Part shown: positions 31,078 to 34,017 of the stretch, in pieces
Position numbering within the stretch: position 1 is the first letter of the stretch
How the letters are laid out: every line of letters begins with the position of its first letter
DNA from: Bacteroidota bacterium
Lineage (GTDB): Bacteria; Bacteroidota; Bacteroidia; Cytophagales; Amoebophilaceae
Assembly: GCA_039819605.1 (NCBI GenBank)
Contig: JBCBRR010000001.1
Coordinates: 1 to 34,357, forward strand
Direction: 5' to 3'
Length of the DNA stretch: 34,357 bases
Position numbers and translations under genes: made by a program
The notes under the pieces: model-generated
The model's database searches: none
What the model saw: the letters and a program-made list of their open reading frames with translations, nothing else
What the model was told of the DNA's origin: nothing

Positions 31078-34017
31078 ATGAAAAGGAAGGATCAGCATTT
31101 AAATCAGAGAAGCATGGCATGTGGGCTACTCGTATCCCTATTTTTGCAAAGTTGCGGGGTGAATGGGCCCGTGGGAGGGCAAGAAGTAAATAACCCACCT
31201 ACCCCTAACGCTGAGGGTGGCGCATTGCATCCTACAGTCAGCGCTCACGATCAGTACCCTGATCTCGAGAATACGCCTCCTCCAGGCGAAGCCTCCACGC
31301 TTGCAAAGTGCCCACTTAAGCTGCCTGCGCAAAAGAAAGTAACAAGTAAAGAAGACCCCGCCTCTTTTGTAGGTAAGCGGCTAGCTAGACAGTTTTTATC
31401 AGGAGATAAAAAAGCCGTCATTGCATTCCTAAAAAGCCACATGTATACCTCTCGTTATAGGCGCACTTTCGCCTTTATGTCGGGAGAAATCGTGACAGGT
31501 ATGCCCGACGAGGTCAGTTCTACAGCCTCAGGCGATGCCAGGATGGTACCTATCCAAGCTTTATTACAGCTGGTAGCTGAACTCCCTGAAGAAATACTCG
31601 GCCTGCAATACCTCATGTTACAGCTCCGGATACTCAACGAGTGGTTGCTAATGGCTGCAGATTCAGCAGAGAAAATAGAAACACTTTCCGCTTTAGAGGC
31701 CAAGTTTCATGTAGAAAAGAACCTCATCATATGGTTCAACAAAGGCCTACGTCAATACAAACAATATGATGACAAATTCACTCAAACACTACACACCATC
31801 CTGATGGCTTTTCTTGCAGAAGCCAGTGGTGTAACCAACCACTACAGCCATACGCTGCTCTTCCCAATCTTGAACGCCCTCCAGGATAGCGGTGCTGATG
31901 CTCGTATAGCTGCCCTACAGGCTCTCCCAGTATTACTATATAAGGACACTGATATGCAAGAATTGTCACCTAATATCCTGAATGCTCTCCAGGACAGTGA
32001 CGCTGGTGTTCGTATAGCTGCTCTAGAGGCCCTACCTATCCTACTAGGGCAAGGCACTACCGTACAAGAATTGCTCCCCTATATCCTGAATGCCCTCCGG
32101 GATAGTGACGAGGCTGTTCGCACAGCTGCTAGAGAGACCTTACCGACCCTATTAGCGCAGGGCACTGCCGTGCAAGAATTGTTACTCCCGGTCTTGAACG
32201 CCCTCCAGGATAGCGACGCTTATGTTTGCATAGTTGCTCTGGAGACCTTACCTACTCTATTAACGCAGGGTGCTACCGTACAAGAGCTGTTACCTCCTAT
32301 CTTGGACGCACTTAAGGATATCCGCGCTGATGTTGGCATAGCTGCCCTAGAGGTCCTACGGACTCTGTCAGAGCAGGGCGCTCCTGTGCAAGAACTGTTA
32401 CCCCCTATCCTGAATACGCTCAGGGATAGCCACGCTTATGATTATGTTCGCATAGCCGTCCTACAGGCTCTACAGATCCTATTAGACCAGGGTGCTGCCG
32501 TACAAGAGCTCTTGCCGCCTATCCTGAACGCCCTCAGCGATAGCTATGCCGATGTTCGCAAAGCTGCCCTACAGATCCTACCAGCTCTAGCAGAGCACGG
32601 TGCTGAAGTACGCGAACTGTTACCCTATATCCTGAATGCCCTCAAGGACAATGATCATGAAGCTCGCAGAGCTGCCCTAGAGGCCCTACCGGCCCTGTTG
32701 GAGCAGGGGGCTGCCATACAAGAATTGTTACCCCCTATCCTGAGCGCCCTCCAGGATAGTGACCCTGAAGTTCGCAGGGCTGCCCTACAGGCTTTGCTGG
32801 TCTTAGTAGAGCAGGGCGCTGAAGCACAAGAACTGTCACCGTATGTCCTAAATACGCTCCAGGATAACCACGCTGATGTTCGCATAGCTACCCTACAGGC
32901 CCTAGGAACCCTACTGGAGGCGGGCGCTCCTGTACAAGAATTGTTACCCCCTATCCTGAACGCCTTCAAGGATAGCGATGCTAACGTTCGTTGGGCTACC
33001 CTACAGACCTTACGGGCGCTATTAGCGCAGGGGGCTGCCGTACAAGAACTGTTACCCGCTATCCTAAAAAATGCGCTTAAGGATAGCGACGCTGATGTTC
33101 GCACGACTACCCTAGAGATTGTACAGGCCTTACTAGCGCAGGGCGCTTCTGTACAAAAGCTATCACACTCTATTCTGAACGCGCTCAAGGATAGCGACGC
33201 TAATGTTCGCAATGCTGCTTTAGAGGCCTTACGGACCCTAGTAGTGCAGGATGCTGCCGTACAAAAACTGCTACCCTCTATTCTGAAGGGGCTTAAGGAC
33301 AGCGACGCCAATGTTCGCATCGTAGCCCTACAGGCCATAGCTATCTTATTAGAGGCAGGTGCTACCCTAAAAAAAGTGTCGCCCTCTATTCTGAACTCGC
33401 TTAAGGACAATGAAGCTAGCGTTCGCAGGTCTGCTCTAGAGACCCTACGAACTCTATTAGTGCAGGGCGCTTCCGTACGAGAACTGTCACCCTATATTCT
33501 GAATGCGCTTAGGGATAGTGACGCTGGTGTCCGCAACGCTGCCCTAGAGGCATTATGGACCCTGGTCGAGCAGGGTGCTGATGTACATATTCTGCTACCG
33601 GATGTCCTGAACGCTCTCCAGGATAGCCATGCTGAAGTTCGCATAGCTATCTTGGAAGCCCTACGGATCCTGATCGAGCAGGGGGTTGATGTGCAAGATG
33701 TGTTACCCCCTATCCTGAATGCGCTCAAGGATAGAGATGCTGATGTTCACAATGCTGCTATGCAGGTCCTTGAGAAAATATCTACGGAGTCAGTTATTGA
33801 CTACTATTGGGAAACGGAAGATGCAACTTGTATTGCTGTTTTGGTACCCAGGCTCTATGAAGTAGCGCTTACTGTGGAGGATATGGAAAGCTCAGGTCAG
33901 CAAAAGCTGGTGTTGCGTTCTGTGCAGGGAGATGTGGTTAAGGTGTGGGAGAAAATGCAGGGAGCAGTAGAGGCGTTTAAGCGGCTTGTACAGGGTAGTG
34001 GTACTTGTTTTGGGTAG
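31078..34017 (+). CDS. HEAT-repeat lipoprotein, NACHT-less paralogue of the 355-4179 protein
   Basis: ATG 31078 gives MKRKDQHLNQRSMACGLLVSLFLQS-C-G (Cys26, nt 31153-31155). The TTG 31036 start in the ORF track adds 14 residues ahead of a good signal peptide. Residues from VGKRLARQFLSGDKKAVIAFLKSHMYTSRYRRTFAFMSGEI align with AGKRLARFFLSGKIEALFAFLKPHIYAPRYRRMFTFMAGEI of the NACHT protein. There are 18 tandem 36-aa HEAT-like units. The C-terminal ~75 aa are also shared. Confidence 0.9.
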   Translation: MKRKDQHLNQRSMACGLLVSLFLQSCGVNGPVGGQEVNNPPTPNAEGGALHPTVSAHDQYPDLENTPPPGEASTLAKCPLKLPAQKKVTSKEDPASFVGKRLARQFLSGDKKAVIAFLKSHMYTSRYRRTFAFMSGEIVTGMPDEVSSTASGDARMVPIQALLQLVAELPEEILGLQYLMLQLRILNEWLLMAADSAEKIETLSALEAKFHVEKNLIIWFNKGLRQYKQYDDKFTQTLHTILMAFLAEASGVTNHYSHTLLFPILNALQDSGADARIAALQALPVLLYKDTDMQELSPNILNALQDSDAGVRIAALEALPILLGQGTTVQELLPYILNALRDSDEAVRTAARETLPTLLAQGTAVQELLLPVLNALQDSDAYVCIVALETLPTLLTQGATVQELLPPILDALKDIRADVGIAALEVLRTLSEQGAPVQELLPPILNTLRDSHAYDYVRIAVLQALQILLDQGAAVQELLPPILNALSDSYADVRKAALQILPALAEHGAEVRELLPYILNALKDNDHEARRAALEALPALLEQGAAIQELLPPILSALQDSDPEVRRAALQALLVLVEQGAEAQELSPYVLNTLQDNHADVRIATLQALGTLLEAGAPVQELLPPILNAFKDSDANVRWATLQTLRALLAQGAAVQELLPAILKNALKDSDADVRTTTLEIVQALLAQGASVQKLSHSILNALKDSDANVRNAALEALRTLVVQDAAVQKLLPSILKGLKDSDANVRIVALQAIAILLEAGATLKKVSPSILNSLKDNEASVRRSALETLRTLLVQGASVRELSPYILNALRDSDAGVRNAALEALWTLVEQGADVHILLPDVLNALQDSHAEVRIAILEALRILIEQGVDVQDVLPPILNALKDRDADVHNAAMQVLEKISTESVIDYYWETEDATCIAVLVPRLYEVALTVEDMESSGQQKLVLRSVQGDVVKVWEKMQGAVEAFKRLVQGSGTCFG
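31855..33783 (+). repeat. 18 tandem in-frame ~108-bp (36-aa) HEAT-like repeat units
   Basis: Unit consensus: LLPPILNALKDSDADVRIAALEALRTLLEQGAAVQE. The first unit starts at 31855 and the second at 31963 (+108). Unit 6 is +6 nt and unit 12 is +3 nt, so unit 18 starts at 33700. The periodicity is visible directly in both DNA and protein. Confidence 0.95.

Follow-up and report, generated by a model that had tools for sequence, protein, structure and literature searches.

The 34,357-nucleotide window analysed here (positions 1 to 34,357 of contig JBCBRR010000001.1, GCA_039819605.1) contains, near its 3' end, a gene on the + strand (31078–34017) whose product, A, carries the signal peptide, HEAT repeats and C-terminal domain of a NACHT-bearing lipoprotein family and no nucleoside triphosphatase (NTPase). 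A is probably a functional, exported, NTPase-less derivative of this fast-evolving family, whose full-length members resemble NLR proteins (named for a nucleotide-binding domain together with leucine-rich repeats), and it would act as a constitutive binder through its HEAT array. The carriers of the family are uncultured, ankyrin-rich Cytophagales/Bacteroidota related to Candidatus Amoebophilus.

Reading from the ATG at 31078 to the stop codon at 34015–34017, A comprises 979 amino acids (aa), not the 980 given by an earlier reading of this DNA (the original prediction). The mechanical open reading frame (ORF) is longer (31036–34017, 993 codons, with a TTG start at 31036), and ATG 31078 is the plausible start. 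Exact look-ups returned no record of A, nor of the contigs that carry the family representatives P0005 and P0006, and a promoter and terminator scan gave a result no better than shuffles. The protein is composed of five parts, listed here with the confidence of the structural model (predicted local distance difference test, pLDDT) for two of them:

31078..31155, + strand: lipoprotein-type signal peptide, aa 1–26, MKRKDQHLNQRSMACGLLVSLFLQSC-G, with the Cys26 codon at 31153–31155
31156..31365, + strand: Pro-rich disordered tether, aa 27–96, pLDDT <35, without secondary structure
31366..31854, + strand: family-specific all-helical post-NACHT module, aa 97–259, about nine helices, pLDDT 50–67
31855..33774, + strand: HEAT array, aa 260–899, 18 units of 36 aa, a 108-nt tandem repeat
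33775..34017, + strand: family C-terminal domain, aa ~900–979, and stop codon (...IDYYWE...RLYEVAL...QKLVL...)

By sequence pattern alone, the N-terminus of A conforms to a PROSITE-style lipobox rule: a Cys follows a basic N-region and a short hydrophobic region. Residues 4–25 are modelled as a helix. Lipoprotein-type N-termini were assigned to 22 family representatives (designated by P numbers) under the strict rule and to seven more with Asn at position -1. The N-terminus of A matches those of its downstream neighbour (E 4e-7) and of P0007 (E 1.4e-5). We considered whether the Pro-rich linker that follows could be a decayed winged-helix tail of the kind visible in P0006. This idea was dropped, as 151 of 2000 shuffles reached the P0006–linker score; against other winged-helix tails, too, the tether scored no better than shuffles.

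The module occupies the position at which the C-terminal helical (HD2-like) domain of a NACHT protein would be expected. It contains the motif GxRLARxFL...RYRRTxxFMxGE...LQLRLLNEWL...GLRQY and has no Pfam match and no PDB sequence match. The HEAT units are highly regular, being ~70% identical to one another (Tandem Repeats Finder: period 108, 14.7 copies, 69% matches; Pfam HEAT, E 5e-74), and their variation is concentrated at positions 4, 10, 13, 15, 18, 25, 26, 29 and 33. They are modelled as helical hairpins (pLDDT 70–90), and a Foldseek search with the predicted fold of residues 260–900 returned CAND1, SF3B1 and PP2A-A (E 1e-13 to 1e-14). In the model of the C-terminal domain (pLDDT 76), two helices are followed by a sheet of three strands and one further helix, a fold without a PDB match (best E 0.36). 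No Por_Secre_tail-type C-terminal signal of the type IX secretion system was found among all Pfam and NCBIfam matches of B (introduced below), all NCBIfam matches of A and the best 25 of the 52 Pfam matches of A. A 251-aa antisense ORF (32655–33410, − strand) lies inside the HEAT tandem repeat and is most likely a by-product of repeat composition, not a gene.

The original prediction had compared A with a second family member encoded in the window:

355..4179, − strand: B, a distant full-length paralogue of 1274 aa, with signal peptide, linker, pre-NACHT helix, NACHT, winged helix, module, HEAT repeats and C-terminal domain

BLASTP aligns the two proteins with E 1e-54, and the alignment opens at G99 of A and G532 of B, the residue after FQEYLA, in agreement with the claim that homology resumes just after FQEYLAG. 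The detectable homology of A thus begins 1–3 residues past FQEYLA, at F97/G99. Aligned alone, the module (A 97–257 against B 530–693) is 43% identical over 168 aa (E 3e-35; 42% over 173 aa by MAFFT) and the C-terminal ~88 aa are 38% identical (E 5e-17). A pairwise alignment had been proposed as a check on the predicted kinship, with similarity confined to generic HEAT periodicity as the outcome that would speak against it. Since the module and the C-terminal domain are each significant on their own, the resemblance between A and B is not generic HEAT periodicity; the non-HEAT parts match.

Other elements of that comparison held in part. The N-termini of A and B are alike in type, but their similarity taken alone is not significant (E 0.074). 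The C-terminal domain is common to both, whereas the HEAT units are not one-to-one counterparts: the arrays share 25–29% protein identity, and that of B is irregular. With arrays as different as these, the suggestion that A and B share a ligand, for which A would compete or which it would present, finds no support. Moreover, B turned out to be a distant comparator, the nearest relative of A being P0003, described below.

The NTPase region of B has no counterpart in A. Pfam places NACHT (PF05729) at residues 211–332 of B (E 1.8e-11); no NACHT match appears among the best 25 of the 52 Pfam matches of A, all of which are to HEAT/ARM-type families. Before residue 94, the model of A shows only the signal helix and disorder, with no P-loop domain. 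The winged helix with its F-x-H-x-x-F-Q-E-Y-[FL]-x-G motif is missing from A, in which homology starts past the motif. Residues 100–531 of B (pre-NACHT helix, P-loop domain, HD1 and winged helix) have no other counterpart in the window when all six frames are searched (best E 1.3). The predicted lack of a counterpart for residues ~100–530 of the full-length protein was thus borne out, and no remnant is found nearby in any frame.

Several features of B itself deserve mention. The best PDB sequence match of its NACHT is NOD2, which is weak (E 0.003). Its signal, LLGLLSLQNC-G, has an atypical Asn at position -1; this LQNC form occurs in B (window 4114–4179, − strand), P0014, P0021, P0092 and P0053, most members having LQSC or LQGC. 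At residues ~519–531, B and its orthologues P0002 and P0094 read FSDLIFQEYLAG, where other members read FPHLTFQEYFAG, so that a conserved winged-helix His is replaced by Asp. In NLRs, the winged-helix histidine contacts the bound nucleotide.

A does not stand alone at its locus, as the next gene also belongs to the family:

34146..34357, + strand: start of an adjacent family member, cut by the window end, with signal peptide, short linker and pre-NACHT helix

This gene begins 129 nt downstream of A on the same strand. Its N-terminus is nearly identical to that of its orthologue, gene 2 on L001, a contig of the metagenome-assembled genome (MAG) GCA_039820225.1, which encodes a complete 1353-aa NACHT–HEAT lipoprotein (signal peptide, NACHT with GEAGTGKT and FQEYFAG, module, HEAT repeats, C-terminal domain). 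The predicted arrangement of a sensor-only copy beside NTPase-containing copies is therefore present. The HEAT arrays of A and of this neighbour share ~65–68% DNA identity. A heads a tandem array, and a third family gene follows in L001.

Comparison with sister MAGs places the change in architecture at a single locus. P0003, encoded on L001, lies at the same locus as A, and has NACHT and an N-extension (1512 aa). The two proteins are ~90% identical over the last ~850 residues (module 87%, C-terminal domain 92%). Window positions 31381–34357 are collinear with L001 2424–5394 at 91.4% DNA identity, an alignment that runs past the stop codon, through the spacer and into the following gene; counted from codon 129 to past the stop, DNA identity is 91%. 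No similarity to L001 is seen in the window upstream of 31381. In L001 1–521, the reading frame of P0003 stays open ahead of the start that was called and nearly reaches the end of the contig, with two stop codons in the first ~35 nt; this stretch resembles the N-extension of P0007. A second contig, L002 (GCA_039208545.1), is syntenic with window 22217–32236 over 10 kb at 94.8% DNA identity and carries the same NACHT-less 5' end (P0001). Across 30700–31400 the window and L002 are 92% identical, with ordinary substitutions. Because the NACHT-less 5' end and its context are found in L002 as well, A is not an assembly accident.

The point at which A and P0003 part company is marked by a short stretch of unusual divergence:

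31381..31461, + strand: homologous, non-orthologous stretch, codons 102–128, synonymous divergence (dS) 1.44 against L001/P0003

By the Nei–Gojobori method, dS between A and P0003 falls from 1.44 in codons 102–128 to 0.09 in codons 129–259, and is 0.24 in both the HEAT array and the C-terminal domain; the baseline between the window genome and the L001 genome is 0.13. DNA identity to L001 is 41/60 in 31403–31462 and ~55/60 from 31463 on. Saturated dS before codon 129 and low dS after it indicate that the two genes are orthologues from codon 129 and carry different paralogous 5' cassettes before it. The pattern points to an exchange between paralogues whose junction falls at about nt 31460, where the module has its conserved RYRRTFAFMSGEI segment (RYRRTFAFM). 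No repeats or inverted repeats of the kind that would signal site-specific recombination flank this junction. The gene thus looks, from these alignments, like the outcome of an exchange of 5' cassettes between paralogues. The original prediction of a clean domain deletion or acquisition is upheld in that a single gene family has cleanly lost or replaced its NACHT block here, but the event does not resemble a simple deletion ending at FQEYLAG.

Could one of the two architectures be an artefact, the NACHT-less gene or its NACHT-bearing counterpart lying on a chimeric contig in which the assembler switched between paralogues at a conserved stretch? All related sequences do come from MAG contigs of 3–14 kb, and the junction falls on a strongly conserved motif, beyond which the sequences are nearly identical over a long distance. 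Nevertheless, the NACHT-less junction was found independently in the window and in L002, and several further NTPase-less members of separate origin break at other points. An artefact is very improbable, and it can touch only the claim about L001 and P0003, not the existence of the NACHT-less gene.

The loss of the NTPase is not confined to A. A search of 1.84 billion proteins with a profile of the module retrieved 89 representatives, of which 15 scored E <1e-30; those with names carry generic annotations only and come from Bacteroidota MAGs. A word-index protein search with the module returned no match, although relatives exist, which this search missed; a second, with the NACHT region of B, gave five matches only, and no relative came up when two alignments of the module were used in four scans of contig collections from genomes and metagenomes. 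We classified the representatives by local BLAST with segments of full-length P0003. The usual order is signal (...LFLQSC), tether, variable N-extension, pre-NACHT helix, NACHT/HD1/winged helix, module, HEAT repeats and C-terminal domain, with the winged helix ending in FPHLTFQEYF(A/T)G. A shares with the family the module, the C-terminal alpha/beta domain (IDYYW...RLY..AL...Q.LVL), and the ...LFLQSC-G signal with its low-complexity tether.

In some members the N-extension contains TPR or DUF294 domains. P0026 and P0023 have kinesin-light-chain-type TPR repeats joined straight to the module without NACHT. Alongside P0026, P0023 and P0030 we noted that some members have a DUF294 nucleotidyltransferase-like domain (PF03445) near the N-terminus or past the C-terminal domain.

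NTPase-less members with intact lipoprotein N-termini show at least five breakpoints, which differ in what is kept upstream of the module:

A and P0001: nothing kept; homology starts right past the winged helix
P0006: the final ~35 residues of the winged helix kept, with a decayed motif, DPHLTSQVYCTG
P0014, P0021 and P0092: about two thirds of the winged-helix region kept
P0012 and P0090: HD1 and winged helix kept
P0019 and P0093: N-extension kept, joined straight to the module
P0026 and P0023: TPR repeats kept, joined to the module
P0022 and P0067: nothing kept; the cut reaches into the module

P0089 is likewise NTPase-less with an intact lipoprotein N-terminus. Over ~1020 aa, with the signal peptide and the C-terminal domain at its two ends, the alignment of P0014 with P0092 is collinear and shows 56% identity, indicating that one NTPase-less architecture has persisted through long divergence. 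A neighbour-joining tree of the module, built without bootstrap, scatters the NTPase-less members over at least six places among the NACHT-bearing ones.

The reciprocal form also occurs. P0095, P0096 and P0097 are NACHT-only proteins consisting of a signal peptide, pre-NACHT helix, NACHT and winged helix, with a stop at ...FHEYFAGKSLRGQF(C); no module remnant was found after these genes. In two MAGs, a 395-aa HEAT-only lipoprotein, with a tether and eight 36-aa HEAT units and with neither module nor C-terminal domain, is encoded directly upstream of a NACHT-only gene:

L003 6864–9563 (GCA_039820225.1), both genes on the same strand: HEAT-only/NACHT-only pair, after SecDF-FolD-UvrA-like genes
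L004 4553–7294 (GCA_039208545.1), both genes on the same strand: HEAT-only/NACHT-only pair, after SecDF-FolD-UvrA-like genes

The NACHT-only lipoproteins of the pair are 458–472 aa long and stop 7–8 residues past FHEYFAG. The ratio of non-synonymous to synonymous rates (omega) for the two genes of the pair is 0.34 and 0.50. As the NACHT-only proteins stop, and the homology of A starts, near the same motif, the boundary past the winged helix has been used in both directions. NTPase-less, NTPase-only and HEAT-only forms recur in the family, and A is not a one-off.

Pairwise comparisons show that A is under purifying selection. Against the L002 orthologue, also NACHT-less, omega is 0.31 for the module and 0.36 for the HEAT array; the signal peptide gives 0.23, from two differences only, and the tether 1.2 (3 synonymous and 11 non-synonymous differences). 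Against P0003, omega is 0.20 for the HEAT array and 0.18 for the C-terminal domain. B and its orthologue P0002 are 89% identical with omega 0.41, and so A, at 0.2–0.4, is as constrained as its full-length relative. Whole-protein values are 0.24–0.37 for the neighbouring ankyrin lipoproteins and 0.05–0.10 for housekeeping genes.

These values bear on whether A might instead be a decaying remnant, a gene without function that was left by rampant recombination among the many paralogues of a host-associated bacterium and is not yet interrupted. The family does include many truncated or odd architectures, some of them probable pseudogenes (P0006 ends out of frame). In addition, omega of A is far above that of housekeeping genes, the tether evolves neutrally, and IS200-type and YhgA-type transposase genes are present in the window. 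Against these points, omega of A is no higher than that of full-length B, and an independent NTPase-less architecture, that of P0014 and P0092, has stayed intact across 44% protein divergence. The 979-codon frame is intact through recombination-prone repeats in two assemblies, with the signal peptide conserved. An intact frame of this kind together with constraint argues against a pseudogene without proving that the gene functions, and we consider decay quite improbable.

A functional, engine-less derivative therefore remains the reading that we favour, and several observations weigh against it. The lipoprotein signals, on which predicted export depends, were assigned by sequence pattern. The exchange may have run in the reverse direction, with the 5' cassette that carries NACHT acquired in the sister MAG; the L001 contig stops short of the P0003 start. 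L001 is, moreover, a short-read MAG contig and could be chimeric at the conserved motif, although a chimera there would not affect the existence of the NACHT-less gene, which has been seen twice independently. Constraint on the NACHT-less lineage is read solely from the 386-codon comparison with L002, that with P0003 being unable to assign it. Pairwise omega of A is relaxed relative to housekeeping genes. Finally, the out-of-frame-looking end of NACHT-less P0006 suggests that some such copies may be decaying.

We propose that recombination between paralogues joined a signal-peptide/tether cassette to the segment past the winged helix. With its junction in RYRRTFAFM, this event would have removed the pre-NACHT helix, P-loop domain, HD1 and winged helix. 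The product would be exported by Sec, lipidated at Cys26, and left hanging on its ~70-residue disordered tether with the 18-unit HEAT solenoid exposed. The few variable positions in each unit are likely to form the surface through which a ligand would be bound. Without a nucleotide switch and an oligomerisation engine, A would be a constitutive binder rather than a switchable receptor, and it may act alone or beside the NACHT-bearing paralogue encoded immediately downstream.

A closer relationship with that paralogue could also be envisaged, in which A is a trans-acting partner, a detached sensor or regulator that works on NACHT-bearing relatives, among them the downstream paralogue and the NACHT-only lipoprotein, through its helical module, the part that in full-length members would pack behind the winged helix, as one half of a two-polypeptide, split NLR-like system. 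The full NACHT–HEAT gene 129 nt downstream, on the same strand, fits this proposal, but the adjacency may simply reflect tandem duplication. A and the NACHT-only proteins are complementary halves with the same cut point (a stop 7–8 residues past FHEYFAG in the latter, homology from 1–3 residues past the equivalent motif in the former), and the HEAT-only/NACHT-only pair is kept in two MAGs with both genes constrained; A and the NACHT-only gene, however, are found in different contexts. A does keep the module that the 395-aa HEAT-only protein lacks, yet this HEAT-only protein is paired with a NACHT-only gene without it, so the module is not obviously a docking element. Taken together, a trans-acting role seems to us unlikely.

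A broader scheme would see the whole family as a set of surface lipoproteins that an endosymbiont-like bacterium reshuffles by recombination. NLR blocks (NACHT engine, helical module and HEAT sensor) would be swapped at conserved junction motifs, and the resulting proteins, whether full-length, engine-less, engine-only or sensor-only, would assemble or compete beyond the cytoplasm of the bacterium. A would then be a component of a split extracytoplasmic NLR-like system or a mimic of host NLRs, and more than a truncated paralogue. We consider this scheme unlikely. If the bacterium lives free in the host cytosol, that would be the only compartment in which an exported NACHT could meet ATP.

Other genes of the window bear on the lifestyle of its owner. 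The best named relatives of its UvrA are from Candidatus Amoebophilus (66–67% identity), followed by Roseivirga and other Cytophagales (64–66%), and the ankyrin-rich, Amoebophilus-related gene content would fit a host-associated bacterium. Four ankyrin-repeat proteins have lipoprotein-type or similar hydrophobic N-termini (16420–18489, 18533–21193 and 23112–25130 on the + strand; 28625–30826 on the − strand). The first two are tandem duplicates whose first ~70 residues are nearly identical (...SCHVH(T/A)PDEAQYQAQVAERDIL...).

The window start cuts off the C-terminal half of an IS200-type Y1 transposase (1–300, + strand, frame 2; PF01797, E 2e-19) beside the 3' end of B, and a YhgA-like gene (21220–22191, + strand; Transposase_31, PF04754) lies between the ankyrin genes and a CAAX-protease-like gene. 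Two D-Ala-D-Ala-ligase-like genes (4326–5765, − strand; 26767–28173, + strand) encode unusually long proteins (479 and 468 aa, respectively), both with split matches to the N- and C-terminal domains of Ddl. A 325-aa ORF (15421–16398, + strand), matched by nothing in Pfam or NCBIfam, combines a Sec-type signal (…ALAPHAQGAAG…) with low-complexity sequence rich in Lys, Pro and Ala.

How does A compare with known systems? Bacterial NACHT (bNACHT) anti-phage proteins have a NACHT domain followed by a C-terminal helical domain and superstructure-forming repeats, with HEAT among the sensor types, and Kibby et al. report that NACHT proteins of intracellular bacteria group with eukaryotic NLRs (bioRxiv 10.1101/2022.07.19.500537). 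The parent family of A resembles bNACHT proteins and other STAND (signal transduction ATPases with numerous domains) proteins in its NACHT module, helical domain and repeats, and the best structure match of B is NOD2. A itself, without NACHT, is not an NLR or STAND protein. Described bNACHT proteins are cytoplasmic, whereas the family of A carries lipoprotein signals, and no link to phage was seen. None of the PADLOC NACHT/Avs defence models matched A, B, P0003 or P0095, which hit generic HEAT models only. The literature searched contained no description of the NACHT–HEAT lipoprotein family or of its engine-less, engine-only and sensor-only forms, and searches for the source assembly and run accessions, and for NACHT with Amoebophilus, gave nothing useful.

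The predicted fold of residues 260–900 is that of generic HEAT solenoids such as the PP2A A subunit, CAND1 and SF3B1, with no sequence kinship beyond repeat type. Beyond such solenoids, A has a lipoprotein signal, a family-specific module and an alpha/beta C-terminal cap without PDB counterpart. Candidatus Amoebophilus asiaticus and other amoeba and animal endosymbionts encode eukaryote-like repeat proteins (ANK, TPR, LRR). The window resembles these genomes in its dense ankyrin-repeat proteins with export signals, plausibly aimed at a host; it differs in that no secretion-system signal was identified and that host association is here deduced from gene content.

In eukaryotes, plants and animals alike, some NLR-family genes are truncated or atypical, being without the nucleotide-binding domain or without the repeats; plant TN/TX/CN-type genes and paired sensor/helper NLRs are examples. 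As in these, A has lost one canonical block, kept the others and is clustered beside full-length paralogues, and its family shows fast evolution by recombination and highly regular repeats. As in paired or decoy NLRs, a sensor-type copy adjoins an NTPase-bearing copy (129 nt, same strand). In contrast to these systems, A is bacterial, has HEAT repeats instead of LRR, and carries a lipoprotein signal that would place its action outside the cytoplasm; for A, no signalling partner or cell-death output is known.

Two features set this family apart: the lipoprotein signal on the family as a whole, and the recurrence of engine-less, engine-only and sensor-only forms. The usual picture of STAND/NACHT proteins is one of cytoplasmic switches, and lipoprotein signals across a family raise the question of where and how its members work. 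Natural split versions could show which parts bind ligand, which oligomerise and whether the halves work in trans. The presence or absence of NACHT at one locus at strain level, with the junction mapped, offers a view, over a short evolutionary distance, of architecture change by paralogue exchange. Should the organism be an intracellular symbiont, the family proteins would be candidates for interference with host NLR pathways. Gene A alone is of moderate interest, and the family that it exposes is of greater interest.

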